A DNA stretch of 64,000 nt from Candidatus Nomurabacteria bacterium. Its GTDB lineage: Bacteria > Patescibacteriota > Minisyncoccia > Phycocordibacterales > SBAW01. A program made the translations under genes and the position numbers. The stretch lies in assembly GCA_943356415.1 (NCBI GenBank), contig CALREW010000002.1, positions 6,639 to 70,638 of the forward strand. Reading direction: 5' to 3'. This document shows positions 2,528-56,137 of the stretch, piece after piece (position 1 is the stretch's first letter; the number at the start of each line of letters is the position of its first letter). The notes beneath the pieces were generated by a model. It was not told the origin of the DNA and did no database searches. It saw only the letters and a list, made by a program, of their open reading frames with translations.

Positions 2528-4654
2528 ATGCACGAGAAGTTTCTCAAACCCTACGACGCCAAAGCCACCGAAGAGGCGACTTATAAACGCTGGGAAGAAA
2601 GTGGCTTCTTTAACCCTGACAACCTACCCCCCATCGACACCGCTCAGGGTAAGGCAGAGCGTAGCGAACCATTCACGATCATCATGCCGCCGCCGAACGC
2701 CAACGGTTCGCTTCATGCGGGCCACGCCGTATTTGTGGCTATAGAAGACCTTATGATTCGCTATCAGCGCATGCGAGGCAAAAAGGCGCTGTGGCTTCCC
2801 GGCGCCGACCACGCGGGTTTTGAAACCCAAGTCGTCTATGAAAAAAAGCTTGAGAAGGAAGGTCGCACTCGCATGGGCATGGACCCAGATGCGTTGCGCC
2901 AGGAAATCATGGACTTCACTCTTACTAATAAATCTTTTATGGAGGGGCAGCTCCGCCAGTTAGGTGCTTCTTGCGATTGGAGCCGAGAACGTTTTACGCT
3001 GGATCCGGAAATTATTGAGACCGTGTATGGAACCTTTAAGAAGCTTCACGAAGATGGGCTCGTCTATCGTGGCGCGCGTTCAATAAATTGGTGCACCAAA
3101 CACCAGACCTCACTTTCTGAACTTGAGACGGAAAGCGAGGAACGCATCGATCCTCTCTATTACATGAAATACGGGCCGTTTATCCTTGCAACCGTGCGTC
3201 CTGAAACAAAATTTGGTGACACCGCCGTTGCGGTAAACCCGAACGATCCCCGATACCAAGAATGGATAGGGAAAGAAATTGAATTCGAAGGTCTTATCGG
3301 CACTGTGAAGTTGAAAGTTATCGCTGATGAATATGTCGACCCGGCGTTTGGCACGGGCGTTGTGAAAATAACCCCAGCACACGATCCAAACGACTTTGAG
3401 ATGGCAAAGCGCCATAACCTTGAAATCGTAGAAGTAATCGATCGCTACGGTAAGCTCAACGAGAAATGCGGCAAGTACGCTGGTATGAAAGTTGAAGAGG
3501 CTCGCAAAGCAGTCGCTGCAGACCTTTTAGAGCGCGGCCTTATCGATCACGTCGACGAGGAATACAAACACGCCGTAAAAAAGTGCTACAAGTGCGAGCG
3601 TGTGCTTGAGCCGCGTGTATTGCCACAATGGTTTGTAAAAATGGCACCACTTGCCGCTCCAGTCATTGAGGCCATCGAGCGAGATGAAGTTATCTTCTAT
3701 CCCGACCACTACAAAAAGATAATGTTGCACTGGTTGCGTAATATCGAAGACTGGAATGTATCGCGCCAAATAGTCTGGGGTATACCGATTCCTGCTTGGT
3801 ACAAAGACAAGGAAGTTCATATCGGCACTGAAAGCCCGGGAGATGGTTGGATCAAGGAAACCGACACCTTTGATACCTGGTTTTCCTCGGGCCAGTGGCC
3901 CTTTGCTACGCTCGGCTATCCTGACGGCTCTGATTTTAAGCAGTTTTATCCAACACAGGTCATGGAGACCGCCGGTGAGATTATCTTTTTCTGGGTGGCG
4001 CGCATGCTTATGCTCGGAACATATCGGACCGGTCGTCTTCCCTTCTCCACTGTCTATCTACACGGCATTGTGACGGCAAAAGACGGAAAGAAAATGAGTA
4101 AGAGCAAAGGCAACGTGATAAGTCCGCTTGAGCTTTCTGAAAAGTACGGCACTGACGCGCTACGAATGGGGCTCATTATCGGCAACACGCCAGGCACCAC
4201 AACAGCTCTCTACGAGGATAAAATAAAAGCTTACAAACTTTTCTCAAATAAACTCTGGAATATCACGCGTTTCATATTCGAAAATGCGGAAACTGTGGGG
4301 CACACAGAAGATGCGCCCCTTAACGCAGCGGACGCTACGCGGTTGGCAGAATTCAAAGCGCTTGCTGCTGACGTCACAAAAGATATCGATGAATATCGCT
4401 TCTATATGGCTGGGGAAAAACTCTATGGATACCTCTGGCACACCCTTGCTGATGCTATACTCGAAGAAAGTAAGCCCATCCTCAAGGAAGGCAGCGCCGA
4501 AGCAAAAGCTTCACGCCTGACGCTCCTTATGCTCATCCTCAAGGATTCGCTGAAATTGCTGCATCCGTTCATGCCATTCATAACTGAGGAGATATGGACG
4601 CATATCCCTGCACGAAGCAATTTGCTCCTCGTTGAAGCATGGCCGCAGCCGTAA
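2528..4654 (+). CDS. valS: valine--tRNA ligase (short form lacking the C-terminal coiled-coil)
   Basis: HIGH-type motif PPNANGSLHAGHA, KMSKS motif, editing-domain signature TVRPETKFGDTAVAVNP, and an anticodon-binding region. At 708 aa it is shorter than the usual 860-950 aa. Confidence 0.9.
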   Translation: MHEKFLKPYDAKATEEATYKRWEESGFFNPDNLPPIDTAQGKAERSEPFTIIMPPPNANGSLHAGHAVFVAIEDLMIRYQRMRGKKALWLPGADHAGFETQVVYEKKLEKEGRTRMGMDPDALRQEIMDFTLTNKSFMEGQLRQLGASCDWSRERFTLDPEIIETVYGTFKKLHEDGLVYRGARSINWCTKHQTSLSELETESEERIDPLYYMKYGPFILATVRPETKFGDTAVAVNPNDPRYQEWIGKEIEFEGLIGTVKLKVIADEYVDPAFGTGVVKITPAHDPNDFEMAKRHNLEIVEVIDRYGKLNEKCGKYAGMKVEEARKAVAADLLERGLIDHVDEEYKHAVKKCYKCERVLEPRVLPQWFVKMAPLAAPVIEAIERDEVIFYPDHYKKIMLHWLRNIEDWNVSRQIVWGIPIPAWYKDKEVHIGTESPGDGWIKETDTFDTWFSSGQWPFATLGYPDGSDFKQFYPTQVMETAGEIIFFWVARMLMLGTYRTGRLPFSTVYLHGIVTAKDGKKMSKSKGNVISPLELSEKYGTDALRMGLIIGNTPGTTTALYEDKIKAYKLFSNKLWNITRFIFENAETVGHTEDAPLNAADATRLAEFKALAADVTKDIDEYRFYMAGEKLYGYLWHTLADAILEESKPILKEGSAEAKASRLTLLMLILKDSLKLLHPFMPFITEEIWTHIPARSNLLLVEAWPQP

Positions 4655-5880: not shown

Positions 5881-6251
5881 TCCTTAAAATACTGGAACTC
5901 TGATCTCGTATCGATCAGATGATGTGCCTGCTTCATTTGCTCTGGCGTATAGATACGAAGGATGGTGAACTTTCCTGACGTGGCCTTCTTCACATGGTCA
6001 TGCGTTGTTTCAACCATCTGCACCAAACCCCAATACACCCATTTGCCTCCTCTATTTTCGACAAGAAAATTCCGCACTGGGGCAGTTTTATAAATTCTGA
6101 TATCTGACTTATTTTTGAACTCAAAAACTTTCCCCTCAAAATCTTCAGTTCGATAGGGCGTTTTTAAATGACGATCCAAATCCAATTCAGCTGGAAAACC
6201 CTGTTCCTTTGTGAGCTGTAGCGTGTCATTGAGTTCTACAAAAACGCCCAT
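5877..6251 (-). CDS. hypothetical protein
   Basis: 124-aa ORF with normal codon usage and no family recognised. Confidence 0.4.
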   Translation of the reverse strand: MGVFVELNDTLQLTKEQGFPAELDLDRHLKTPYRTEDFEGKVFEFKNKSDIRIYKTAPVRNFLVENRGGKWVYWGLVQMVETTHDHVKKATSGKFTILRIYTPEQMKQAHHLIDTRSEFQYFKD

Positions 6252-23941: not shown

Positions 23942-24006
23942 GGGGTCGCGTGAAAGTTATCTATATAAAGTGCCCGGTATTCCCCGTCGCCGGGGGTAGA
24001 GGCACC

Positions 24007-24034
24007 AGTATAGAGGATTGGTATATGCAGTCAA
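24007..24034 (-). promoter_or_regulatory. sigma70-like promoter of the groES-groEL operon
   Basis: Minus-strand TTGACT, a 16-nt spacer, then TATACT, about 65 nt upstream of the groES ATG. An inverted repeat at 23970..24006 lies in the 5' UTR. Confidence 0.45.
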
Positions 24035-24036
24035 CG

Positions 24037-24072
24037 ATTAAAAAGGAATCGCCCAGGCCTCCCGGCCTGGGC
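24037..24072 (-). terminator. rho-independent terminator of purL
   Basis: Minus-strand CCCAGGCCGGGAGGCCTGGG hairpin followed by CGATTCCTTTTTA, 27 nt after the purL stop. Confidence 0.6.
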
Positions 24073-24098
24073 GTATCCGTCTGTTCGACCAGCGGTGC

Positions 24099-27000
24099 TC
24101 ACTGGTGTGCAAGGCACCAGCAACACGCGTTTTCGAACATCCTGAGCCAGGGGGAGGCGGCATCCTCCTTCCAATTGTCAGGCGTATAGACCCATTGCCA
24201 CGGAAGAACCGCGCGCTCAGGGTGCGGCATCATACCGAGGTGACGTCCGTCCGCAGAGCAGAGCCCTGCGATGCCGAGCGGCGAACCGTTCGGATTGTAC
24301 GGGTAGCTTTCAGTCGAGATGCCTTGCGGCCCCACGAACCGAAGTGGTAAGAGCTTCTTACGCATGATATCCGCGAGCACGTCTTGGTTCGGGAAGTTGT
24401 ATCTCCCCTCACCGTGCGCACTATGGATGCCCAGCACTGACCCTTCCATCCCTTGCAAGAAGATGGACGGGCTCTCGTAGATGCGCAGCATGCTCCACCG
24501 AGACTCAAACCGTCCCGACGCGTTGTGCCCCAAGTACGGGCGCGACGCCTCGTCACGGTCGCTTCCAGGCAGAACTTTCAGATGCTGCATGAACTGGTTG
24601 CCGTTGCAGACTCCCAGCGACAACGTATCGGGGCGCTTGTAGAACGCCTCGAACATCCTGCGCACCTTGCGATTGAAGCGAACCACAGCCGCTTGACCAC
24701 GCCCCGCACCGAAGACGTCCTTGAACGAAAACCCTCCGGGGTACGCGAGCAGTTGGAACTGGTCCAGCGTGCTCACGCGTCCTTCGAGGATGTCGCTCAT
24801 GTGAACGTCCCACGGCGAGAAGCCTGCCAAATGCAGCGCGCCCCACATCTCCTCGTGGCCGTTACTCCCCTCTTCGCGCAGCACTGCAGCTTTCGGCCGC
24901 GTTGCCGTTTGAGAGAAGACCGCCGGAGCCGTCGGCGTGAAAGAGCGCTTGTACCGCACGGGCTTCGCTGCCTGATGCGATTTCGCTTCCTCACACGCCG
25001 TTGCAGTAGCGCTCTGCCCTGCGTTCAACGCATCGCTCGTCGATTTCCACCATTCACGCAGCGTCGTGATCTGCTCGCCCATAACAAGCGAGCCACGCGC
25101 ATCGCGAACACTGAGACGCCGCACCGATGTATTCCCGCGACCCAGGCGCACCATTCCGACGCCAAGGTTCTTGAAGGTCGAGGTTATGGACGCCTCGTCC
25201 TCCATCGCATACGCAAACACGTACCCGGCTTCCTCGGCGAAGAGGTACGGCAGCGGATCTACTCCTTGCGGGAGGTTGATCTGCATGCCGAAGCCAGACG
25301 CCACGCACATCTCGACGAGCGTTGCGATAAGCCCGCCGTGACTACGCGCGTGGTACGCGAGTACTTGCCTGCGCATGTGCAGCATTTGGAGTGCTTCAAG
25401 GGACTGCCGAAGCAGCTCAGGATCGATGTCGGGGCATTCGTTGCCGAGCTGTCCCAACGTCTGAGCGAGGCTCGAGCCGCCGAGGCGATTCAAACCTTTC
25501 CCTAGATCAACAAAGCCGATTGCGACACCAGCCTTCAAAGAAGGCAGCGCCGCAGTCACTCCACGCCGAATGTTGAGCACCGGCGCGTAGCCCGTGAGGA
25601 CAAGCGTGCCTGGCGAGGCAACTGTTACCCCACCGATTTTCACCGACATGGACAAGCTGTCCTTACCGCCGGTAATGCGAGTCCTCGTACGGTTGTGGAT
25701 GTCTGCGAGGGCGTCGGCCGCCGCATACAGACGAGCCATTTCTCCTTTCATGCTCGCTGGCCACATCCAATTAGCCTGAGTGCAGATTTCCTGCGTTCCG
25801 GAAATTGCCGCCGCACCCATATTGAGGTACATGTCTGCATACGCCATTCGCGCACCGGCCCGAGGGTCGATGAGCGACATGATAGGCCGCTGCCCCACCG
25901 TCATTGCGGCACCGGTTGTCGTGAAGTAAGAGTCGGAAGTTACGCCGACCCGACCGACAGGCACTGCCATCGGTCCGCACGTATGTGAGCGTGCCACTTT
26001 GCCTCCAACACTTGAATCACCGAGCGTGGTGACCCATCGGTTGGAACCAACCCTGGGAAGCCGCAGCACATTGCGCAACGCCTCGGTGACGCTTAATCCC
26101 TGAGGGATTCTAAGCGGCGGGAGTTCACGCGCGACCGTCACGTCTTCGATCGTGAGCTGACCGACCGCACGACGCAATTCCGCGTAGGTGAGATCGACAA
26201 GCGTCGCATCGTCGGTCGAATCGATGAAGCGGATGGTGCCGCTGTCATCGACTTTGCCCAACACTTCAAGTGGCACACGCTCTCGCGTGCAAATCGCTTG
26301 AAACACCGGCAGATCTTCCGGTGCAATGACAACGCCGAAGCCCTCTTGGCTTTCGCCGAGTAGCTTTTCAACTCGCCGAATCGACGGATCACCCAAATTG
26401 AGCGCTCCGAGGTCGAGCGTGGCGCCGAGCTGATCAACGAGCTCGGTACCGAGACTTCCGACGCCGGCTGCGCCCTGGTCGTGGATGGCCTTGAACGGAT
26501 TGCGCCCAAGCATCGCGACTGCAGCGTTGATGGCGCGGAACGTACGGCATCCCATCTCTGGGTCGCCGCGTTGCACCGCCTCATCATTCTGTTTTGCCGA
26601 GTTCGCACTCTGATCGGCACTTGAAGCAGTAGCGCCACCGAACCCTAAGTTGAACGTCGGTCCGCCGTAGCGGATGGCGAGCATCCCTGGTTTCAATTCC
26701 GCTTTCTTCTGGTGCTGACTGAGTACGCGACCCATGCCGCCGACAACGAGAATCGGCTTTCGATTTCCCACCCGATCACCCCACGGCATTCCTTGCTCGA
26801 AGGAATCGATGTTCCAGAGGATGGTCGGGTGACCAGACGCGTTGGCGTAATCACACGCACCGTGCGCCCCTTCAAGCAGAATGCGCAGTGGCGTAGCTAG
26901 TGTTGGGTCATGCAGTTCTGGGATTTCGCCCGGGATCGCATGCCCCTTGATGTTGAGGTTGCCGACGGAGATGCCGGCCCATAGCGCAACGCCTGGGTAT

Positions 27001-27932
27001 GCGCCGATGCCGATGGCATAGAGGTCGCGCAGAAGTCCTCCGACGCCGGTTGCCGCACCAGGAAACGGTGCGATCGATGTCGGGAAATTATGCGTTTCGA
27101 CTTTGCCTGTCGGGTTGAGTGTGTGTCGCACGATTGCACCGGTCGTTTTGTCGACGACGAAACAAACCGGCGACGGACCACCCGGTTCAAGTGGCAGAAA
27201 CAGCGGCACCGGCGCAAGTCCGTGCATGGCGCTCGCGTTGTCGCTGAAGGCGACCGTCGCGATGCCATGCTCAGCTCGGTGAGGTGCCCTGACAAGATCA
27301 AACAGCGTGTACGGCATGACGTTGCCATCGATGACGATACGCGCGTTGAACTTCAGGTGTCGGCTGTGGTCTGAGTTGTACGCCGGGAGGAAGAACAGCT
27401 CTTCGACAGTCGGGTCGCGACCTTTCTGAACGAAAAAGGCTGTGTAGGCCTCCTGCTGTGCGACGCTTAGCCCGATGCTGAACTCAGTGTTCGCACGTCT
27501 GAGCGCCTCCACTCCTTCCGTCATCACCGGAACTCGGACAAAGCGTTCCGCCGTCCGAGCACCAGTAAGTGTCGTGGGCAGCGTGGCGTAAACCGACTGG
27601 GTCATACGGTCGAAGCCTTGCGCGAGCAGCTGCTCCTCGGTTTGCGTGCCGAGGACGCGATGCTCGAACCGTTCGATTCGCGTCACGGGAACGTCGATTG
27701 ACCCGAGAATGGCCGAACCATTGGCCGACTCAGGCGTCGAGAACATTAGACGCGGTCCGACGGTTAGCATGCCGGCGAGATCCGGCTGAACATTTCTGAC
27801 CGAATGACCTGAACCGCCAAGAAGATATTCCAACTTGACGATATCAGCCGGCTTGAGCGCTCGCGCGGACTCGACAATAAAGCAATCGACCGGCGCGCCG
27901 CCTTTGTGGCGGTAGAGTACGGACGTATGCAT
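24099..27932 (-). CDS. purL: phosphoribosylformylglycinamidine synthase, large single-chain type (PurL with fused glutaminase domain)
   Basis: AIRS-type motif HNFPTSIAPFPGAATGVGGLLRD and a C-terminal class-I GATase motif LSLGVCNGNQFM, about 1277 aa. The tracked ORF is extended to 28223; the ATG at 27930-27932 (MHTSVLYRHKGG...) is the likely start. The gene is about 60% GC, above the 50% background. Confidence 0.9.
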   Translation of the reverse strand: MHTSVLYRHKGGAPVDCFIVESARALKPADIVKLEYLLGGSGHSVRNVQPDLAGMLTVGPRLMFSTPESANGSAILGSIDVPVTRIERFEHRVLGTQTEEQLLAQGFDRMTQSVYATLPTTLTGARTAERFVRVPVMTEGVEALRRANTEFSIGLSVAQQEAYTAFFVQKGRDPTVEELFFLPAYNSDHSRHLKFNARIVIDGNVMPYTLFDLVRAPHRAEHGIATVAFSDNASAMHGLAPVPLFLPLEPGGPSPVCFVVDKTTGAIVRHTLNPTGKVETHNFPTSIAPFPGAATGVGGLLRDLYAIGIGAYPGVALWAGISVGNLNIKGHAIPGEIPELHDPTLATPLRILLEGAHGACDYANASGHPTILWNIDSFEQGMPWGDRVGNRKPILVVGGMGRVLSQHQKKAELKPGMLAIRYGGPTFNLGFGGATASSADQSANSAKQNDEAVQRGDPEMGCRTFRAINAAVAMLGRNPFKAIHDQGAAGVGSLGTELVDQLGATLDLGALNLGDPSIRRVEKLLGESQEGFGVVIAPEDLPVFQAICTRERVPLEVLGKVDDSGTIRFIDSTDDATLVDLTYAELRRAVGQLTIEDVTVARELPPLRIPQGLSVTEALRNVLRLPRVGSNRWVTTLGDSSVGGKVARSHTCGPMAVPVGRVGVTSDSYFTTTGAAMTVGQRPIMSLIDPRAGARMAYADMYLNMGAAAISGTQEICTQANWMWPASMKGEMARLYAAADALADIHNRTRTRITGGKDSLSMSVKIGGVTVASPGTLVLTGYAPVLNIRRGVTAALPSLKAGVAIGFVDLGKGLNRLGGSSLAQTLGQLGNECPDIDPELLRQSLEALQMLHMRRQVLAYHARSHGGLIATLVEMCVASGFGMQINLPQGVDPLPYLFAEEAGYVFAYAMEDEASITSTFKNLGVGMVRLGRGNTSVRRLSVRDARGSLVMGEQITTLREWWKSTSDALNAGQSATATACEEAKSHQAAKPVRYKRSFTPTAPAVFSQTATRPKAAVLREEGSNGHEEMWGALHLAGFSPWDVHMSDILEGRVSTLDQFQLLAYPGGFSFKDVFGAGRGQAAVVRFNRKVRRMFEAFYKRPDTLSLGVCNGNQFMQHLKVLPGSDRDEASRPYLGHNASGRFESRWSMLRIYESPSIFLQGMEGSVLGIHSAHGEGRYNFPNQDVLADIMRKKLLPLRFVGPQGISTESYPYNPNGSPLGIAGLCSADGRHLGMMPHPERAVLPWQWVYTPDNWKEDAASPWLRMFENACCWCLAHQ

Positions 27933-27959
27933 GGCGTGCCCCTTCCTGTGGCAGATTTC

Positions 27960-27994
27960 AAAAAAACACGCACCCTCTACAAAGAGAAGGTGCA
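27960..27994 (-). terminator. intrinsic terminator / attenuator hairpin inside the purL 5' leader
   Basis: Minus-strand GCACCTTCTCTTTGTAGAGGGTGC (9-bp stem) followed by GTGTTTTTTTG, ending about 28 nt upstream of the purL ATG. Confidence 0.5.
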
Positions 27995-28088
27995 TCCAAA
28001 TGAACAGTACCACTCGCCCTCTATATGAAAAGGTGGGCCAGGCCCCTATGCGTTGCACGCAAAAGAGGCCTCTGATAGAGTGGGCGTA

Positions 28089-44466: not shown

Positions 44467-46020
44467 ATGGCTCGCCCGAAGATTCTTGTCGTGGAGCTCG
44501 GCTCCCAATACACCCAGATCATCGGCAGGGCCCTGCGCGAGCTCGGGTACCGTACTGCCATCCTCGACCCTAAGAAGGCCGAGAGGTGGGCTGCGAATCA
44601 CGAGGTCAAGTGCGTCATTCTCTCCGGCGGTCCCCATTCGGTAACCGACGTGGATGCGCCGAAGCCTACGGAGCAGATGATGCGTCTCCTCTCCGAGCGC
44701 AACGTCCCCATCTTCGGGATCTGCTTCGGCATGCAGTGGCACGCACACCTCCTCGGCGGCACCGTCGAGAACATCGAAGCCAACCGCGAGTTTGGTCACG
44801 CGCTCGCCGCGCTTGATCCAGCGTCGCCGCTTTTCGCTGGCCTCAATGAAGAAGAGCGAGTCTGGGCGAGCCATGGCGACACGGTCACCACGCTCCCCGA
44901 CGGCTTTAAGGCCATCGGCTGGCAGACCACGAGCGGTGCTATCACCGCCATGGCCTCGACCAACGAACGGGTCTTCGGCGTGCAGTTCCACCCCGAAGTG
45001 ACCCACACACCCTCGGGCAAGGCGATCCTCGAGAACTTCGTTTCCAGCATCGCTGGCTGCGAACGCGACTGGGACCCGACGCTCTTGGTCGGAGAAATCC
45101 GCCAACATCTGTCGGAGCTCGCCAAGGACGGTGCGAAAGCCATCATCGGCTTCTCTGGCGGCGTCGATTCAACGACGCTCGGCGCCATCGCCTCTTCGGT
45201 CTTCGGCGAGCAGCTGCTCGCAGTTGCCGTGGACGCTGGCCACATGCGCGAAGACGAGATGGAGGAAGTGAAGCGGCACGCACAAGCGGCCGGTCTCACC
45301 CTACGGATCGTCGACGCACGCGAGAAGTGCCTCAAGGCACTCTCGTTCGAGACAGACTCCGAGAAGAAGCGAAAGGCCTTCACCAAGATCTACGAGGAAG
45401 CCTTCGCCGAAGTGGCGGCCGAGTTCGACGCCACCATCTTCCTGCAGGGTACGCTGGCGCCCGACGTCATCGAATCCGGCGAAGATGGACGCGACCTCAT
45501 CAAGTCGCACCACAACGTCAAGGCGAAGGTCGAAGGTTGCGAGTCGTTGCACCCGCTCGCGAGCCTCTTCAAGTACGAGGTCCGCGAAATCGCCAAGAGC
45601 CTCGACCTTCCCGAAAGCGTCTGGAAGCGCCAGCCGTTCCCGGGACCCGGCCTCACACTGCGCGTTGTCGGTGCCATGGTGACCGACGACGCGATGGCGC
45701 TAGTCCGCAAGGCGGACGCCATCGTGACCCGCGTACTCAAGCAGCACGGCGAGTACGACAAGGTAGACCAGCTGGTCGTGGCGATGCTGTGCATCAAGAC
45801 GACCGGGGTCAAGGGCGATGCGCGTTCCTACGGCTTCTCGATCGCCGTACGCGGCGTCATCACTTCCGACTTCATGACTGCGGAAGGGTACGATTTCCCA
45901 ACCGCCGTGAAGAAGGAGATCTCGCGCCAGGTCACCAAGCTCAAGATCGGTTACTACGACATCGTGCGTGTCCTGTGGGACACCACCGACAAACCGTCGG
46001 GTACGACGGAATACGAATAG
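44467..46020 (+). CDS. guaA: GMP synthase (glutamine-hydrolysing)
   Basis: GATase GICFGMQ with a catalytic Cys, PP-loop FSGGVDS, and the GMP synthase C-terminal domain. RBS GAGGAGGGG upstream. The gene is about 62% GC with strong GC3 bias, above the background. Confidence 0.95.
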   Translation: MARPKILVVELGSQYTQIIGRALRELGYRTAILDPKKAERWAANHEVKCVILSGGPHSVTDVDAPKPTEQMMRLLSERNVPIFGICFGMQWHAHLLGGTVENIEANREFGHALAALDPASPLFAGLNEEERVWASHGDTVTTLPDGFKAIGWQTTSGAITAMASTNERVFGVQFHPEVTHTPSGKAILENFVSSIAGCERDWDPTLLVGEIRQHLSELAKDGAKAIIGFSGGVDSTTLGAIASSVFGEQLLAVAVDAGHMREDEMEEVKRHAQAAGLTLRIVDAREKCLKALSFETDSEKKRKAFTKIYEEAFAEVAAEFDATIFLQGTLAPDVIESGEDGRDLIKSHHNVKAKVEGCESLHPLASLFKYEVREIAKSLDLPESVWKRQPFPGPGLTLRVVGAMVTDDAMALVRKADAIVTRVLKQHGEYDKVDQLVVAMLCIKTTGVKGDARSYGFSIAVRGVITSDFMTAEGYDFPTAVKKEISRQVTKLKIGYYDIVRVLWDTTDKPSGTTEYE

Positions 46021-46045
46021 CCGACTGATCATCGGCCCGAACACA

Positions 46046-46084
46046 GAAGGGCGCCGGCGGAAGCCGACGCCCTTCGTCTTTTTA
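46046..46084 (+). terminator. rho-independent terminator of guaA
   Basis: GAAGGGCGCCGGCGGAAGCCGACGCCCTTC followed by GTCTTTTT. Confidence 0.6.
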
Positions 46085-46098
46085 AAATTGGTTAGGGA

Positions 46099-46470
46099 TT
46101 ACTTTCCGAACCACAGGCGCAACCAACCATGCATCATTTCTATTTCACTGCTCTGAACCGTAATAATGTCATCCGCCATTTTGAGGAGTTCCGGTCGTGT
46201 GGTTCCCTCCTTTAGAACTTTCGCCATCGCAATCGCTCCCTCATGGTGTTCAATCATTCCGACGAGAAATGCTTCTTCAAGCGCGGCGCCAGTCTTTCCA
46301 TCAAGCGAAGCAGTCATCGAACTCATGGTGTCACCCATCGTCATCGAAGAATGATCGACGACTGTGGTTGCGCTCGGCGCAGTTTTTGGCGCAACCATAT
46401 AACCAAGTCCGAAACCAAGCACAAGACCGACGATACCCACAACAATGACGCTGTTTTGTTTCATATACAT
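46099..46470 (-). CDS. DUF305 family protein
   Basis: FLVGMIEHHEGAIAMA...SEIEMMHGWL. Confidence 0.6.
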   Translation of the reverse strand: MYMKQNSVIVVGIVGLVLGFGLGYMVAPKTAPSATTVVDHSSMTMGDTMSSMTASLDGKTGAALEEAFLVGMIEHHEGAIAMAKVLKEGTTRPELLKMADDIITVQSSEIEMMHGWLRLWFGK

Positions 46471-46869
46471 TTACTCTTTAGGTTTAAGGTCGAGACAAAC
46501 CGAATTCATACAGTAACGCTTCCCTGTACTTTCAGGCCCATCGTCAAATACATGTCCGAGATGCCCACGACACCGCGAGCAAACCACTTCAGTTCGATGC
46601 ATGCCGTGACTACTGTCTTCAATAAATTCCACCGCACCAGGAAGCGCCTGATCAAACGACGGCCAACCAGTGCCGGATTCAAACTTAGCGTCTGAAGCAA
46701 ACAACTCATTCCCGCACGCGGCGCACGTGTACGTTCCTTCTCGCTTTTCATGAAGAAGGGCTCCGGTGCCAGGCGCCTCAGTCCCCTTCTCACGCAATAT
46801 GTGATATTGCTCGGGCGTTAGCTTTTCCTTCCACTGATCTTCATTCTGAGGAATATTGTTCTCTCGCAT
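46471..46869 (-). CDS. msrB: peptide-methionine (R)-S-oxide reductase MsrB
   Basis: Two CxxC zinc motifs and the catalytic C-terminal RCRGHLGHVFDDGP motif. Confidence 0.9.
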   Translation of the reverse strand: MRENNIPQNEDQWKEKLTPEQYHILREKGTEAPGTGALLHEKREGTYTCAACGNELFASDAKFESGTGWPSFDQALPGAVEFIEDSSHGMHRTEVVCSRCRGHLGHVFDDGPESTGKRYCMNSVCLDLKPKE

Positions 46870-46874
46870 ATTAA

Positions 46875-47414
46875 TTATCCGTTTGCTTTTAATAGCGCCG
46901 CGAATTCTTTTTGAACTTTTTCAAGCTTGGGGTTAATCACAACCTGACAATATCCCTGCGTTTTATTGCGTTCGTAATAATCCTTGTGACTTTGTTCCGC
47001 TTCATAAAAAGTTGTTTTAGGAACTACCTCCGTTGTGATTTGGCTTCCATTTGGATTCGAGTTGTTTAAATCAGTGACAAATTGTTTTGCTTCTTTTTCC
47101 TGCTCCTCTGTTTCAGCAACAATAATCGAGCGATACTGCGTACCAATGTCGTTGCCTTGACGGTTAAGCGTCGTCGGATCGTGCGACGCAAAAAAGACCG
47201 TGAGCAAGGTATGGAATGAAACGAGCGTAGGGTCGTACTCAATTTTTATTACTTCCGCATGCCCAGTCTCTCCGGAACAAACCTGCAAATACGTGGGGTT
47301 CTCCGTGCGTCCCGCAGCATAGCCAGGTTCTACAGCAATAACCCCCTTGATCATCTTAAAAACCGCTTCGGTACACCAGAAACACCCGCCTCCAAAGATT
47401 GCTGTTTGAGTCAT
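46875..47414 (-). CDS. msrA: peptide-methionine (S)-S-oxide reductase MsrA
   Basis: GGGCFWCTEAVF catalytic motif. Confidence 0.9.
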   Translation of the reverse strand: MTQTAIFGGGCFWCTEAVFKMIKGVIAVEPGYAAGRTENPTYLQVCSGETGHAEVIKIEYDPTLVSFHTLLTVFFASHDPTTLNRQGNDIGTQYRSIIVAETEEQEKEAKQFVTDLNNSNPNGSQITTEVVPKTTFYEAEQSHKDYYERNKTQGYCQVVINPKLEKVQKEFAALLKANG

Positions 47415-47503
47415 GTCTGCGAATAAGGTGCTAAATGCTAGTTAAACCTTCAGGAACTTCGTAGTCAATTGTACCCTCCGTTTTTAGGTCTACGAGATAC
47501 TAA

Positions 47504-48568
47504 TTATCCGAAAGTAAAAGCATAGAAACGAACTCTTCCCTCTTTTACTCGCAGTTCGAGTTGGTGGGACTCTGCAGAATCTGCGTGCATCACATGGTAG
47601 AGTTTGCTTTCTCTTACCGTTATTACTCCGTCAACGACGTCAGTTTGAGTGAGCGTCCCTACCACCACATCGTCAATGAGAACTTCTACAGCAGAGGGGC
47701 TGTCCGCAGCCGCAACAATATAAACATCCTTTGCATCATATCGGTACACAACGGACGCTCCTGTTGCCCTCGTCTCTGCGTACTCAGGCCCAATAGCCCA
47801 CGAACCACTGAGATAGAGCGTATTTGAAGCAAGTGTCCCTGGCACAACAAAGGTATCCGTCACAGGAGCGCCCGGTATGCCGTTGCCAAGCCGTTCATTT
47901 CTAAGCGATCCAAAGTACGTCTCAGGACTTTGCGTCTCAACAATATCTTTACGCACCTTTGATGCAGCAAGATTCCCGACTAAAGCATCGTTATTAGTTT
48001 CTCCAAGTACGTGAGCTCGCTCGTCGAGCAATGCACGTATTTTCGTCTCCGTTTCTTCGTACCCACCTTCTCCGATGTGGTCATATACAACATTGCCATG
48101 AATATCGATAAGATATTTATGCGGCCAGTAGCTATTGTGATACGCGTTCCAGGTACCATACGCATTATCCAGAACAATGGGAAATGTCAGTCCGAATTGT
48201 GAAGCTGCAGCTTTCACGTTGGCGATATCCTTCTCGAAAGCGAACTCGGGGGTGTGTATGGCAACAATCTCAAACCCCTTGTCATGATAGGCCTCGTACC
48301 ACGCACGAAGGTACGGGAAGGTGCGCTGACAATTGATGCAACTGTAGGTTAAGAAGTCGACCAATATCACCTTTTTGCCGACAATATCTTTCAACGCTAT
48401 CGGGCCGGTATTAACGAAACCTGAAGGGTTAACTATCTCTGTGTATGGTGTTCCTGCGTACATTTCTGCAGCGTTTTTTTGTATGGCGGGTGCTTTGCTA
48501 AAGATAAGGGCAAGGCTGAGTGCCGCAACTATCAAAACAACTCCCGCAATGGCGTAGATTACTTTCAT
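47504..48568 (-). CDS. thioredoxin-fold thiol-disulfide oxidoreductase (TlpA/ResA-like) with an extra C-terminal domain
   Basis: Signal anchor plus a redoxin domain with CxxC (LTYSCINCQRTFPYL). Its stop overlaps the upstream ccdA. Confidence 0.75.
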   Translation of the reverse strand: MKVIYAIAGVVLIVAALSLALIFSKAPAIQKNAAEMYAGTPYTEIVNPSGFVNTGPIALKDIVGKKVILVDFLTYSCINCQRTFPYLRAWYEAYHDKGFEIVAIHTPEFAFEKDIANVKAAASQFGLTFPIVLDNAYGTWNAYHNSYWPHKYLIDIHGNVVYDHIGEGGYEETETKIRALLDERAHVLGETNNDALVGNLAASKVRKDIVETQSPETYFGSLRNERLGNGIPGAPVTDTFVVPGTLASNTLYLSGSWAIGPEYAETRATGASVVYRYDAKDVYIVAAADSPSAVEVLIDDVVVGTLTQTDVVDGVITVRESKLYHVMHADSAESHQLELRVKEGRVRFYAFTFG

Positions 48569-49299
48569 GATTGTGGCTGCACGCGCTGAAGCAGCAGCTG
48601 TTCTACTTTTGTAACGTCGATATATCCACTGTTGAGGATAGTTGTCTCAATTTTTTTCTCGAAACCAAACGCGATCGAAAGACCCAGAATAATAAACAAA
48701 ACTCCAATACCTCTTTTAAAGTAGCCGCGCGAGTCTGAAATCGCCGCGAGGCGATTTGCAAAACGCTGACCAAACAGTGCGACGAGTATTAACATGAGAG
48801 AGAGCCCCACTACGTATGCAAACAAATACAATGTCCCGAGCGCAAAGGAAGCCGGTAGTACCGAGGCAAGGATAACGAAGTATGTCGGCGAGCACGTGGA
48901 GAAAACTGGACCGAGGGCAGCGCCAACAACAACGTCACCCCATAGACTCTTCCCGCGAGCGCCTGCGCCAAGTGCATTATTAGACATCACAGAAAGACGC
49001 TGTACCCCAGGCAGATACTCCCACAGTGCAGGCATCGCAAGCGTTAAACCGAAGAGCGTTAGTATTCCGCCTGAAAGATAGGCCCACGCAGCAGCCGGCA
49101 CCATCACAAAAGCCGTAGACACCTTAAGAACGTAGGTGAAGAAGATGATAGACGCTGCAAGAGAAGCAACGACAACATACGGCGTCGCACGGCTCTTGCC
49201 AGTCGCCGCAGTCCCAAGCACGACAGGCAAAAGCGGCAAAATGCACGGAGCAAGAACCGTTAAGACACCGGCTAAAAATGAGACAGCGAGAAAGGTCAT
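48565..49299 (-). CDS. ccdA: cytochrome c-type biogenesis protein CcdA (DsbD family thiol-disulfide transporter)
   Basis: Six TM helices and the conserved Cys in LAPCILPLLPVVL. Confidence 0.8.
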   Translation of the reverse strand: MTFLAVSFLAGVLTVLAPCILPLLPVVLGTAATGKSRATPYVVVASLAASIIFFTYVLKVSTAFVMVPAAAWAYLSGGILTLFGLTLAMPALWEYLPGVQRLSVMSNNALGAGARGKSLWGDVVVGAALGPVFSTCSPTYFVILASVLPASFALGTLYLFAYVVGLSLMLILVALFGQRFANRLAAISDSRGYFKRGIGVLFIILGLSIAFGFEKKIETTILNSGYIDVTKVEQLLLQRVQPQS

Positions 49300-49301
49300 A
49301 C

Positions 49302-49574
49302 CTATTGAGACATGGCGCCGTCCTTCTTCATCATTGAATCACCTTCGTTCTTCATAGCACCACTGCTCATGGTCGAATCATCCTTTTTCATCATGTCGGC
49401 ATCACTCATTGAGGACGTCGCCATTGATTCGTCCTTTACTGGAGCATCTTTTTGCATCATCGTTGCGTCTTCTTTTGCGACCATTGCATCATTACGAGAA
49501 GTATTAAAGTGCCATAGCACCCCCGCTCCCCCAACAACAATGACGAGTCCAATAATCCACAGTGCTGCTTTCAT
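49302..49574 (-). CDS. Met-rich small secreted protein
   Basis: 90 aa with a signal anchor, then a tail of about 65 aa carrying 15 Met in repeats (MMQKD, DADMMKKDDSTM, DSMMKKDGAMS). It sits 3 nt upstream of ccdA. Confidence 0.5.
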   Translation of the reverse strand: MKAALWIIGLVIVVGGAGVLWHFNTSRNDAMVAKEDATMMQKDAPVKDESMATSSMSDADMMKKDDSTMSSGAMKNEGDSMMKKDGAMSQ

Positions 49575-49630
49575 AGATAGAAATGTTTTTTATCGCTTGT
49601 ATATAAAAAGTGTAAGCGAAAGAAATATGA

Positions 49631-49650
49631 ATGTAAAGTTGACTTTACAT
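49631..49650. promoter_or_regulatory. candidate operator palindrome ATGTAAAG-N4-CTTTACAT, copy 1
   Basis: Perfect 8-4-8 palindrome 57 nt upstream of the Met-rich gene start. It is identical in its arms to copy 2 at 50285. Confidence 0.5.
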
Positions 49651-49682
49651 TACCTCTGTGGAGAACTGCATGTTCCACGGCA

Positions 49683-50048
49683 CTAGCGACGACTGTCGAT
49701 GTAGAGACGACTACCAAGCTTGCCTAGAAGCATCGCCACCAACCCGCCTACAAGCCACGGATCAACAGCGTGTGAAAACGATTGCACAGCAACTCCAACG
49801 ACCATAACTCCTGCACCAACAAGATATGCTGCACGTCCTGCAAAGGTGCGGTTTGCTTCGTCACGCTCATCCTGAGCATCTTCACGTAGGACAAAGGCCG
49901 CAAAAAGCCCAAACACGACAAGCGCTGCAGCTGCGATGCCCATAACTACCATGCTCGGCATAAATAAATCGAATGGATTAAGCAAAACAAGTGCCAGCGC
50001 AGCGAGTGCAGCGGCGGCGATGCCCTCTTTAAGATAGCTGGTGTTCAT
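49683..50048 (-). CDS. membrane protein partner of the XRE regulator (3-4 TM helices)
   Basis: Overlaps the XRE gene stop by 4 nt, indicating an operon, and is hydrophobic throughout. Confidence 0.5.
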   Translation of the reverse strand: MNTSYLKEGIAAAALAALALVLLNPFDLFMPSMVVMGIAAAALVVFGLFAAFVLREDAQDERDEANRTFAGRAAYLVGAGVMVVGVAVQSFSHAVDPWLVGGLVAMLLGKLGSRLYIDSRR

Positions 50049-50251
50049 GATGATATTGAAAATAATTTCTCGACGGGCACTGAGAATAATTTTGCAAGCT
50101 TAAGTGCGAGCAAAACAGAGGGTGTGTAATTACCCTTCTCGATAGCGATGATGGTCTGGCGGCTCACACCGACGTGCTCGGCTACATCCTCCTGCGTCAT
50201 CATTGCTTTTGTGCGTAACACATTCACCGTATTGCTAACACGCGCTGTCAT
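50045..50251 (-). CDS. XRE-family helix-turn-helix transcriptional regulator
   Basis: Cro/C1-type HTH: LRTKAMMTQEDVAEHVGVSRQTIIAIEKG. Confidence 0.85.
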   Translation of the reverse strand: MTARVSNTVNVLRTKAMMTQEDVAEHVGVSRQTIIAIEKGNYTPSVLLALKLAKLFSVPVEKLFSISS

Positions 50252-50284
50252 TTCTGTAGGGTAAGTATACTTTTCTGCTCACAA

Positions 50285-50304
50285 ATGTAAAGCGGTCTTT
50301 ACAT
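50285..50304. promoter_or_regulatory. candidate operator palindrome ATGTAAAG-N4-CTTTACAT, copy 2
   Basis: Perfect palindrome 33 nt upstream of the XRE start codon. Confidence 0.5.
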
Positions 50305-50418
50305 TCAACATACCAGGCACCTGCTACGATTTGACGTAGCCACTGCGCTTCACTAGGCTTGCTTCGGGAACACCGTTGAAAGCCCGCCCGAAAAATTGAT
50401 GACCGAGGGGAGCCGACT

Positions 50419-50892
50419 ATGCGTACCTTCTTAAGCCTTGCGTGCGCCCTTTTTGCCACCGCAGCCGCTATGTCCTGGAGCACGACTGCGTCGGCGCAAC
50501 CGACACAGAGCGAACTGCCGAAGGCTGACCGCGACCGGTGCAACAAAGTGGGGCCCGACGGTCAGCCACTTCTGCTTCGCCCGGGAGACGAAGGCTATCG
50601 GCACGCATGTCTGCACCAGTACTACAAGCAGCTGTACGATGCCGGCAAATGTCATTGCCATACCGGTTATTGTCGGCCGACAAGGATCCGGTACGTCGCT
50701 GGCATAAGCGAGGTTCTCATCAGCGGGGTCTGGTATGAGTTTCCTCGCGAAGCGTTGAAGCGCAAAGCCGAGGTGCCGCCGGAGCTCTGGGAACACGAAG
50801 CTCACGTCTGTGCCCACCCACTCGGTGGCACCGACGAGAAGGGCCGTCCAAAAGTGAACATCGAATGCGTCATGGAAAATGCCGCAGGATGA
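50419..50892 (+). CDS. hypothetical secreted Cys-rich protein (high-GC gene)
   Basis: Signal peptide MRTFLSLACALFATAAAMS, 9 Cys including CHCHTGYC. The gene is about 61% GC, with its own RBS GAGGGGAG and a downstream hairpin. Confidence 0.5.
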   Translation: MRTFLSLACALFATAAAMSWSTTASAQPTQSELPKADRDRCNKVGPDGQPLLLRPGDEGYRHACLHQYYKQLYDAGKCHCHTGYCRPTRIRYVAGISEVLISGVWYEFPREALKRKAEVPPELWEHEAHVCAHPLGGTDEKGRPKVNIECVMENAAG

Positions 50893-54985: not shown

Positions 54986-55123
54986 ATCAAAAAGTATACC
55001 CCGCCTCACACATTGAGACGGTACTATTGCCTTTTCTAAAAAAGTTTGTATAGTTTTTCGCGGAACGCAACCACCGGTCCGTTTCCTTTCCTCATCCTCA
55101 ACCAACAGTCAGCGAGGGCAGCG

Positions 55124-56137
55124 ATGCCGACACGTGAATTCGACCTCCTCATCGTGGGAGGTGGGGCCGCAGGCCTCAGCGCTGCCATCAGCAGCGCGTC
55201 CGAGGGGCTCAACGTGGGTCTTCTCGACTCCGCGGCACAGCTCGGCGGCCAGGCCGGCAAGAGTTCTGCCATCGAGAACTACCCCGGGTTTGCCACACCG
55301 ATCAGCGGTGACGAACTGATGGCTCGGTGCATCGCCCAGGCGCGCCGCTTCAACACCAACATCCTGTGCCCCCAGAACGTCGTGGGCATCGTCCAGGATG
55401 GCAAGCGGCAGCTGGTGGTGACCGACGACGAGCAGTCCTACCTCGCCAAAGCTGTCGTGCTGAGCCTCGGTCTCGACTACCGTCGCCTGATGGCGAAGGG
55501 CATCGGTGACTTCATGGGCCGCGGCATCCTCTACGGCGCCCCGACCACTGACCCGAGCGCGCTCGGCGAATGCATCGTTTCTATCGTGGGCGGCGCCAAC
55601 TCGGCCGGCCAGGCGGCGATGCATCTGTCCAAGAACCCGAAAGCCAAGGTACGGCTGCTGGTTCGCAAGGCGCTCGACGACCAGATGTCGGACTACCTCA
55701 TCAAGTACATCCGGGCGGCGCCCAACATCGAAGTACTCGAAGGTGTCGAGGTCGTGGAGGCCTTTGGTGATTCGAAGCTGCAGGAAGTGGCGCTGAAGAA
55801 GTCTTCGAGCGAGGCGCTCGAGCGGCTGCAGACGCACCACCTCTTCATCTTCATCGGCGCACAGCCGCGGACCTTTTGGCTCAACGGCCACGTCGCCGTC
55901 GACGCCAAGAAGTTCATCGTCACCGGCGCGGATCTGCTGAAGGAAGGGAGAGACGTGAAGTGGCAGGGCGTCTGGAAGCATCCGAAGCGGTCACCGCTGC
56001 GGTACGAGACGAGCCTGCCTGGTGTCTTCGCCTGCGGCGATGTTCGGCTCGGCTCCACCAAGCGTGTGGCCGCAGCCTTCGGTGAAGGCTCCGGCGTCAT
56101 CCAGATCTGCCACGAGTTCCTCGCCCTCGATGAGTGA
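55124..56137 (+). CDS. FAD-dependent pyridine nucleotide-disulfide oxidoreductase, thioredoxin-reductase-like fold without the CxxC redox centre (ferredoxin-NADP reductase type)
   Basis: FAD site DLLIVGGGAAGLSAA, NAD(P) site VSIVGGANSAGQAA, and C-terminal GVFACGDV. There is no internal CxxC. RBS GCGAGGG lies before the ATG at 55124. The gene is about 63% GC. Confidence 0.7.
   Translation: MPTREFDLLIVGGGAAGLSAAISSASEGLNVGLLDSAAQLGGQAGKSSAIENYPGFATPISGDELMARCIAQARRFNTNILCPQNVVGIVQDGKRQLVVTDDEQSYLAKAVVLSLGLDYRRLMAKGIGDFMGRGILYGAPTTDPSALGECIVSIVGGANSAGQAAMHLSKNPKAKVRLLVRKALDDQMSDYLIKYIRAAPNIEVLEGVEVVEAFGDSKLQEVALKKSSSEALERLQTHHLFIFIGAQPRTFWLNGHVAVDAKKFIVTGADLLKEGRDVKWQGVWKHPKRSPLRYETSLPGVFACGDVRLGSTKRVAAAFGEGSGVIQICHEFLALDE

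Follow-up and report, generated by a model that had tools for sequence, protein, structure and literature searches.

A duplicated palindrome as the probable operator pair of a CylR2-like regulator and its membrane partner at an envelope thiol/methionine repair operon of Patescibacteria

The cytolysin system of Enterococcus faecalis is controlled by CylR2, a repressor bound at the promoter, which works with the small membrane protein CylR1 as a two-component system with no phosphorelay, and in which the route of signal transfer from CylR1 to CylR2 is unresolved (PMC3709268). Here we describe a related arrangement in a 64,000-nucleotide stretch of DNA from a Candidatus Nomurabacteria bacterium (Patescibacteriota; GenBank assembly GCA_943356415.1, contig CALREW010000002.1, positions 6,639 to 70,638 of the forward strand), hereafter the window. 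A perfect palindrome occurs in it twice, at site A, 5′ of the gene for a small XRE regulator and its membrane partner, and at site B, 5′ of a redox operon. Judging from sequence and its conservation, the two palindromes are probably the operators of a CylR2-like XRE repressor that, together with the membrane partner, would control an operon for envelope thiol and methionine repair. A CylR2-type helix-turn-helix (HTH) protein with a small membrane partner is a known kind of regulator; the present case differs in the partner family, the two operators, the redox-repair regulon, the phylum-wide conservation in the Candidate Phyla Radiation (CPR) and a plausible methionine-based sensor. We found no description of the regulator, operator or regulon in the literature, and searches on methionine sulfoxide reductase (Msr), XRE and Patescibacteria, or on CylR2 and oxidative stress, returned nothing on the system and nothing that ties the control of Msr or CcdA to an XRE protein in Patescibacteria; the arrangement appears to be conserved across Patescibacteria and undescribed. 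The features that form the proposed circuit are as follows.

50285 to 50304, minus strand: site A, exact candidate operator palindrome ATGTAAAG-CGGT-CTTTACAT, 5′ of the XRE gene (putative autoregulatory site)
50264 to 50291, minus strand: promoter of the XRE-membrane operon, −35 TTTACA at 50291-50286, 16-nucleotide spacer, −10 TATACT at 50269-50264; 10/12 matches in the promoter scan
50045 to 50251, minus strand: XRE regulator, 68 amino acids, single HTH_3 domain, CylR2-like by Pfam HTH_3 and PDB matches
49683 to 50048, minus strand: membrane partner, 121 amino acids, four transmembrane helices, overlapping the XRE gene by 4 nucleotides (50045-50048)
49631 to 49650, minus strand: site B, exact candidate operator palindrome ATGTAAAG-TTGA-CTTTACAT, 5′ of the redox operon
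49609 to 49637, minus strand: promoter of the redox operon, −35 TTTACA at 49637-49632, 17-nucleotide spacer, −10 TACACT at 49614-49609; found by promoter scan

The XRE regulator belongs to HTH_3 (PF01381; 52.9 bits against a cut-off of 23) and aligns over residues 6-65, 60 positions in all, with CylR2 (PDB 1utx) at E = 6.8e-10. With this significant similarity and a single domain of 68 amino acids, against approximately 66 for CylR2-like small repressors, it falls among them. A further match, at E = 7e-13, is to PDB 9k3w, an uncharacterised 65-amino-acid PbsX-family regulator on which no paper was found. The recognition helix SRQTIIAIEKGNYTPS, nearly invariant among 30 XRE homologues, has the same SRQTI as that of CylR2, the single HTH domain measuring 66-68 amino acids in the two systems. 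As in the cytolysin system, which uses neither kinase nor phosphorelay (PMC3709268), the regulator gene adjoins, and is probably co-transcribed with, the gene of a small polytopic membrane protein, an arrangement in which an earlier note on this DNA had seen a regulator pair and for which CylR2/CylR1 provides a known relative. The XRE protein has thousands of relatives, and the nearest, at 65-78% identity, are patescibacterial (Kaiserbacteria, Paceibacterota, Minisyncoccia, Liptonbacteria). The Streptococcus mutans XRE protein SMU.405c was considered as a relative and rejected, being an unrelated protein of 136 amino acids.

The resemblance extends to the DNA. The E. faecalis locus (plasmid NZ_CP124896.1, our locus L084) carries the perfect palindrome TTTTGTCAAGTG-T-CACTTGACAAAA at 1172-1196, 5′ of cylR1-cylR2, with half-sites TGTCAAG and CTTGACA, N5 apart, that are nearly identical to the TGT(A/C)AAG-N4-CTT(T/G)ACA of Patescibacteria. 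It is probably IR1, the element to which CylR2 is reported to bind (Rumpel et al. 2004). The operator variants TGTCAAG and TGTAAAG do not follow changes in the recognition helix, which is identical in both. CylR1 (1210-1494 of the same locus) has KKDER after its first transmembrane helix, and DER is invariant in the membrane partner described here. The two systems also differ: in cyl the membrane gene comes first, whereas here the XRE gene does; the half-sites are N5 apart there and N4 here; CylR1 has three predicted transmembrane helices and the partner here four; and cyl responds to a lantibiotic subunit (quorum sensing) and targets a toxin operon, whereas here the proposed target is an envelope redox-repair operon, with two separate candidate operators and a patescibacterial host. 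No peptide or lantibiotic genes were found near the XRE locus, and its gene content points to a redox signal.

The genes downstream of site B, like all relevant genes from XRE through DUF305, lie on the minus strand.

49302 to 49574, minus strand: anchored Met-rich peptide, 90 amino acids, a short form of the Met-rich-thioredoxin protein of relatives
48565 to 49299, minus strand: CcdA-like (DsbD family) membrane thiol-electron transporter; Pfam match sub-threshold, orthologues syntenic in most loci
47504 to 48568, minus strand: anchored TlpA/ResA-like thioredoxin with a DipZ-type C-terminal domain; Redoxin 44.9 bits, Thioredoxin_10 99.4 bits, NCBIfam ResA subfamily E = 1e-20
46875 to 47414, minus strand: MsrA; Pfam PMSR 208.6 bits, no signal peptide, starts MTQTAIFGGGCFWC
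46471 to 46869, minus strand: MsrB; Pfam SelR 168.6 bits, no signal peptide, starts MRENNIPQNED
46099 to 46470, minus strand: anchored DUF305/CopM-like protein; Pfam DUF305 65.5 bits, outside the conserved cassette
46046 to 46075, minus strand: GC-rich hairpin closing the operon, between the convergent DUF305 and guaA genes; fold −29.3 kcal/mol, z −4.1

This operon resembles two described redox systems. In the SigF/NrsF-MrpX-YedY system of Azospira suillum, a hypochlorite response, MrpX is 20% Met and 44% charged and acts as a sacrificial hypochlorite sink (PMC4436054). There, as proposed here, a regulator is checked by a small membrane protein, and the adjacent operon encodes an exported Met-rich charged peptide and a methionine sulfoxide reductase. 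The window peptide is likewise a small exported protein rich in methionine and charge, with 12 Met in the 66 residues past its transmembrane anchor (18%) and 33% charged residues. The regulators differ, an extracytoplasmic function sigma/anti-sigma pair in Azospira and an XRE protein here, as do the reductases, which are the periplasmic molybdoenzyme YedY/MsrP there and MsrA and MsrB here, and the CcdA/TlpA branch is missing there. The second comparison is with CcdA-Etrx-MsrAB2, which repairs methionine sulfoxide at the surface of Streptococcus pneumoniae, and with DipZ of Mycobacterium tuberculosis. The locus shares with these the predicted CcdA-type electron transfer to an anchored thioredoxin-like protein and the genetic link to Msr, and its TlpA-like protein has the Thioredoxin_10 C-terminal domain of DipZ. 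An exported or anchored Msr, as in surface repair, is not found in the window, where neither MsrA nor MsrB has a signal or an anchor; because they lack signal peptides, both are predicted to be cytoplasmic rather than envelope proteins. The Met-rich anchored thioredoxin and the XRE/membrane regulator are in turn absent from the CcdA-Etrx-MsrAB2 and DipZ systems.

Within the window, ATGTAAAG-N4-CTTTACAT has two exact copies only, and none further at up to three mismatches, where 0.21 would be expected. As read in the window, the copies are ATGTAAAGTTGACTTTACAT (49631-49650) and ATGTAAAGCGGTCTTTACAT (50285-50304), and on the coding (minus) strand both gain one base per side, giving AATGTAAAG-N4-CTTTACATT. 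The perfect palindrome is thus duplicated exactly where the earlier note had placed it, and the geometry it gave was nearly all recovered: site A lies 33 nucleotides from the XRE ATG (50251) and the XRE and membrane genes overlap by the 4 nucleotides claimed, whereas the distance from site B to the ATG of the Met-rich peptide (49574) is 56 nucleotides and not 57. The gene identities it proposed are borne out by Pfam for HTH_3, PMSR, SelR, Redoxin with Thioredoxin_10, and DUF305. For ccdA, the matches to the DsbD_2 and DsbD_TM profiles fall under the cut-offs (24.4 bits against 24.9 and 22.9 against 27.1; E = 3e-5 for DsbD_2, just under its cut-off), while two Cys-containing transmembrane motifs and the preserved synteny speak for the assignment. 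Its description of the gene junctions as 3 nucleotides to overlapping holds with a sole exception, an 89-nucleotide gap between the tlpA-like gene (ending at 47504) and msrA (starting at 47414).

Conservation of both positions was assessed in a scan with an XRE alignment, one genome per species, which gave at least 598 confirmed loci; the best 80, spanning many CPR classes, were analysed, with genes counted by tblastn with the window proteins and with loci holding enough sequence as denominators. In 76/80 loci the gene directly 3′ of XRE encodes the membrane partner. The gene order is kept (XRE, membrane protein, site, Met-rich-thioredoxin, CcdA, TlpA), and CcdA and/or the TlpA-like protein follow downstream on the same strand in 56/63. 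An orthologue of site B (TGTAAAG-N4-CTT[TG]ACA) is exact in 48/75 loci and present at up to two mismatches in 62/75, starting, in all loci but one, between 4 nucleotides inside the stop codon of the membrane gene and 44 nucleotides past it (site B of the window lies 32 nucleotides past). By chance, the 778 kb examined should hold only approximately 0.01 exact matches (2 strands × 777,702 × 2/4^14). Site A is less well kept, with an orthologue at up to two mismatches 5′ of the XRE gene in 35/79. The position frequency matrix gives the consensus R-TGTAAAG-Y-NN-R-CTTKACA-T, with half-site positions invariant or nearly so and variable central bases, which fits recognition by a protein. Further near-exact sites in these loci precede Met-rich-thioredoxin genes, an anchored MsrB (L070), MsrA and a Met-rich secreted protein. 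In two loci the thioredoxin-CcdA-TlpA operon has been relocated 5′ of the XRE gene, and an extra site still precedes its Met-rich-thioredoxin gene.

At both sites the −35 hexamer of a sigma-70-like promoter sits inside the promoter-proximal (downstream) half-site, and the XRE-membrane promoter has a very short leader. A −10 box follows after 16-18 nucleotides in 57 of the 62 B sites and 32 of the 35 A sites, whereas random positions give 7.5%; the −10 hexamers of B sites are mostly TATACT or TACACT. A site centred near −39 that overlaps the −35 hexamer is a position used by some activators, and the XRE protein might act from it on both promoters in a class II-like manner. We consider this very unlikely, as near-consensus hexamers (TTGACA/TTTACA, 17 nucleotides, TATACT) should need no activator, and the XRE protein is a bare 68-amino-acid HTH domain whose homologue CylR2 represses at a promoter. 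Repression is favoured by these same three points.

The specificity of the palindrome was examined without bias in public metagenome contigs, which were scanned for the exact pattern ATGTAAAGT-NN-ACTTTACAT with 18 specified bases, yielding at least 120 stretches. Among the 120 matches listed, 66 lie within 700 bp of an open reading frame (ORF) that matches the CylR2-like XRE profile, 23 of them within 100 bp and the other 43 mostly 345-520 bp away, the length of one small gene; redox genes are also present at 25 of the 120. This is not the picture of a palindrome that is common and unrelated to these genes, an outcome that the earlier note had named as fatal to its proposal. Where the XRE gene occurs without redox genes, the regulators are remote homologues at 35-57% identity, and the organisms have 25-68% GC; the palindrome lies 5′ of the XRE operon, and the product of the neighbouring gene, in either order, is a polytopic membrane protein, often with DER or (E/D)DE after a transmembrane helix (L093, L095, L097, L157, L158, L176, L179, L180, L187, L193 and L194). 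This type of operator seems to go with the CylR2-like subfamily as a whole, and the loci suggest a broad, undescribed family of XRE and membrane modules with one operator type.

The proposal that a single regulator site ties the XRE/membrane pair to the redox operon is supported by the two positions kept across 80 species, the −35 overlap and the correctly spaced −10 boxes, and equally by the extra copies 5′ of Met-rich-thioredoxin, msrA and anchored msrB genes and the metagenomic tie to CylR2-like XRE genes. A chance duplicate or dispersed repeat with no regulatory role, for which nothing but the AT-richness of the palindrome speaks, has a negligible probability: two copies stand alone in 64 kb even at up to three mismatches, their position is kept across species, and the specific association with CylR2-like genes in metagenomes refutes that reading.

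Site B could also be read mainly as an RNA hairpin, that is, as an intrinsic terminator or attenuator of the XRE-membrane transcript and not a protein-binding site. It lies shortly past the stop codon of the membrane gene, folds at −10.3 kcal/mol (z −3.8) and is followed by a U-rich stretch, and in relatives its non-conserved flanks are more complementary than expected, with a mean of 2.61 of 6 positions paired against 1.80 ± 0.14 with permuted partners. All six flank positions pair in 10/62 loci, with compensatory differences between loci. The stem itself, however, is invariant and not covarying, and it is AU-rich, unlike the GC-rich stem with U-tract of a Rho-independent terminator, and was not reported by the terminator scan. 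The identical sequence stands 5′ of the XRE gene, with no gene of the same direction before it that it could terminate, and the −10 box keeps its fixed spacing in 57/62 loci. No RNA family was found at either palindrome in Rfam searches at permissive E-values over 45900-50600 and in those of the whole window; the matches obtained were tRNAs and sub-threshold ones at the 46046-46075 hairpin. Taken as its main role, termination is quite unlikely; in some lineages site B probably acts as a weak terminator as well, which is compatible with the operator reading.

Flank pairing differs between the window and its relatives. In the window (49629-49652) the flanks contribute just two extra pairs, whereas those of L009 (6634-6663), L010, L021, L024, L038, L041 and others are complementary (for example, AACAAA...TTTGTT against AACGAA...TTCGTT), which in this subset stretches the operator into a hairpin of at least 13 bp with T-rich sequence next to it. 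In such relatives the element may serve as terminator, operator and promoter in one. A shorter palindrome, ATGTAAAC-TTACAT (6-2-6), lies between site A and the XRE start in L009 (approximately 5970-5990), L010, L011, L017 and L031; it overlaps the −10 region and could be a second, differently spaced operator.

The conserved target of the operator is narrower than the operon of the window. In most relatives the first gene past site B encodes a protein with an N-terminal anchor, a Met-rich charged linker (median Met 16%) and a thioredoxin-fold domain with WCPxC, CxxC being found in 39/49 loci; the short form without the thioredoxin domain occurs in the window and in 5/80 loci (L014, L023, L026, L033, L041). 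The L008 counterpart (3533-4066) of the window peptide (49302-49574), for instance, is a full form with thioredoxin WCPTC. MsrA or MsrB lies co-directionally downstream in 17/56 loci and DUF305 in 0/80, although the latter is present in the metagenome relative L169. The conserved target is the Met-rich-thioredoxin/CcdA/TlpA reductant pathway; the Msr genes, which the earlier note had listed in the same string along with DUF305, follow it in a minority of loci. The prediction in that note of a dedicated envelope oxidative-stress regulon needs refining for the MsrA and MsrB of the window, with their predicted cytoplasmic location.

This gene content bears on the signal. The wiring could be the same with copper or another thiophilic metal as the signal, in which case the Met-rich peptide and DUF305 would bind Cu(I) and CcdA/TlpA would repair cysteines mis-oxidised by copper (Scs-type). 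Cu(I) is typically bound by Met-rich tracts of the MMxKD type and by Met/His/Trp loops (CusF, CopC, PcoE), and both kinds of element occur here; the DUF305 protein matches the NCBIfam model of the CopM metallochaperone at 61 bits, under its cut-off of 90, and the conserved core is the thiol-reductant pathway rather than Msr. Against a metal signal, DUF305 is missing downstream in all 80 related loci, the cassette holds no copper exporter or chaperone, and the extra operator copies precede msrA and msrB, which points to methionine oxidation. On balance we regard a metal signal as rather unlikely, though as a rival to be taken seriously.

The membrane partner is the candidate sensor. Its family comprises 547 representatives at 50% identity, nearly all of 116-125 amino acids, and has no match in Pfam or NCBIfam. 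When 77 orthologues are aligned, D60-E61-R62 and K110 show no variation, and E56, R72, G78, D96, W98, L103 and M106 are kept at 94% or more. The loop at 24-33 reads N-P-x-x-x-W-M30-P-x-M (M30 in 96%, P31 in 94%), with more Met residues after it, and a second outer loop reads Q-x3-H-x2-D-P-W (H93-x2-D96-P-W98). The AlphaFold2 (AF2) model, with a predicted local distance difference test (pLDDT) score of 84, places helices at 3-23, 32-55, 64-90 and 97-120. The positive-inside rule would put the DER loop (56-63) in the cytoplasm, and the W-M-P-x-M and H93-x-x-D-P-W loops, which lie opposite it in the model, are predicted to face outward. A Foldseek search of the model against the PDB returned nothing below E = 0.5, only generic four-helix bundles. 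The label DUF2178 (PF09946) is precomputed on 3/11 homologues returned, but a scan of the window protein and 18 aligned homologues gave no match at E ≤ 0.01, and no paper on DUF2178 was found.

A mechanism can be proposed from these elements. An XRE dimer on each palindrome would cover the −35 box and block RNA polymerase at two promoters, so that at site A the regulator would repress its own bicistronic operon (XRE and the four-helix partner) and at site B the operon for the Met-rich peptide, CcdA, the TlpA/DipZ-like protein, MsrA, MsrB and DUF305. Because the XRE protein has no sensor domain, the signal would most likely enter through the co-translated membrane protein; the exposed methionines are conserved, which makes their oxidation an attractive trigger, one that would alter the contact of the DER loop with the XRE protein and relieve repression. 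Of the derepressed products, CcdA would pass reducing equivalents to the TlpA/DipZ-like and Met-rich-thioredoxin proteins at the outer face of the membrane, the Met-rich tract would serve as a sacrificial oxidant sink, and MsrA and MsrB, apparently in the cytoplasm here, would repair methionine sulfoxide. In its full form, in which the XRE/four-helix pair is a one-step transmembrane redox switch (W-M30-P-x-M oxidation, DER loop, release of the CylR2-like repressor) of a general patescibacterial envelope oxidative-stress regulon and, more broadly, pairs of CylR2-like and DER-motif membrane proteins make up a large, unrecognised kinase-free signalling family across bacteria with the shared operator code TGTmAAG-N4/5-CTTkACA, the model is tentative, and we put it forward as a possibility that is somewhat more doubtful than not.

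Several observations weigh against the operator and repair-regulon reading or narrow it. Binding, repression and induction in this uncultivated organism are predictions from comparative genomics. Site A is undetectable at up to two mismatches in 44/79 loci, and autoregulation is therefore not universal. The cassette comes with Msr genes in only approximately 30% of loci, which, with the predicted cytoplasmic location of the window enzymes, makes the methionine-repair part of the reading weaker than the thiol-reductant part. Copper sensing would be just as good an account of the outer-loop Met/His/Trp residues and the CopM-like DUF305. An alignment of the membrane partner with the CylR1 profile by hhalign has a probability of 2.7%, with the DER segment alone aligning; homology to CylR1 is not established and is not claimed. 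Among the 120 metagenome matches listed, 51 have no XRE-like ORF in the DNA examined. They include L085, L098, L099, L115, L118, L123, L136 and L202; some of the 51 stand at contig ends (such as L111, L141 and L197, which have thioredoxin-CcdA genes), and others lie in long contigs. These lone occurrences may be chance matches, remote members of the regulon or sites of another protein.

To our knowledge, almost nothing is known of transcriptional regulation in Patescibacteria, with their tiny genomes and few regulators. The locus supplies a candidate regulator, an operator consensus and a regulon kept across many CPR classes, and it suggests that these organisms have retained a dedicated surface defence against the oxidation of thiols and methionine. 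Such a defence is relevant to the way these mostly anaerobic epibionts deal with oxygen or with oxidants derived from the host. The locus may also offer a handle on CylR1/CylR2 signalling: distant CylR2-like proteins of organisms with 25-68% GC come with this type of operator and a DER-motif partner too, so that the cytolysin system of Enterococcus may belong to a wide family of kinase-free signalling pairs. The operator sequence is directly usable for regulon prediction, DNA affinity purification sequencing (DAP-seq) and heterologous reporters.

The surroundings of the operon gave some further observations. Divergent from the XRE gene, an ORF at 50419-50892 (plus strand) encodes a secreted protein of 157 amino acids, rich in Cys and His, for which neither a Pfam family nor a counterpart in the 80 related loci was found; no −10 box at proper spacing was found for a promoter running from site A toward it. 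The 50-51 kb bin that holds it has 55% GC, against 47-49% in the four bins of the redox operon (46-50 kb). At the other end, the 46046-46075 hairpin is probably a bidirectional terminator; its sub-threshold Rfam matches to CsrC and BjrC68 look spurious. The GC content reaches 59-62% at 24001-28000, 45001-46000 and 55001-56000, against approximately 50% in the rest of the window. The 45-46 kb stretch corresponds to guaA (44467-46020), and such stretches could reflect heterogeneity of composition or acquired genes. Within the operon, the 89-nucleotide gap (47415-47503) contains TTGACT and, approximately 17 nucleotides on, TTAACT; these could form a weak internal promoter without an operator, and expression of msrAB-DUF305 might then be partly independent of site B.

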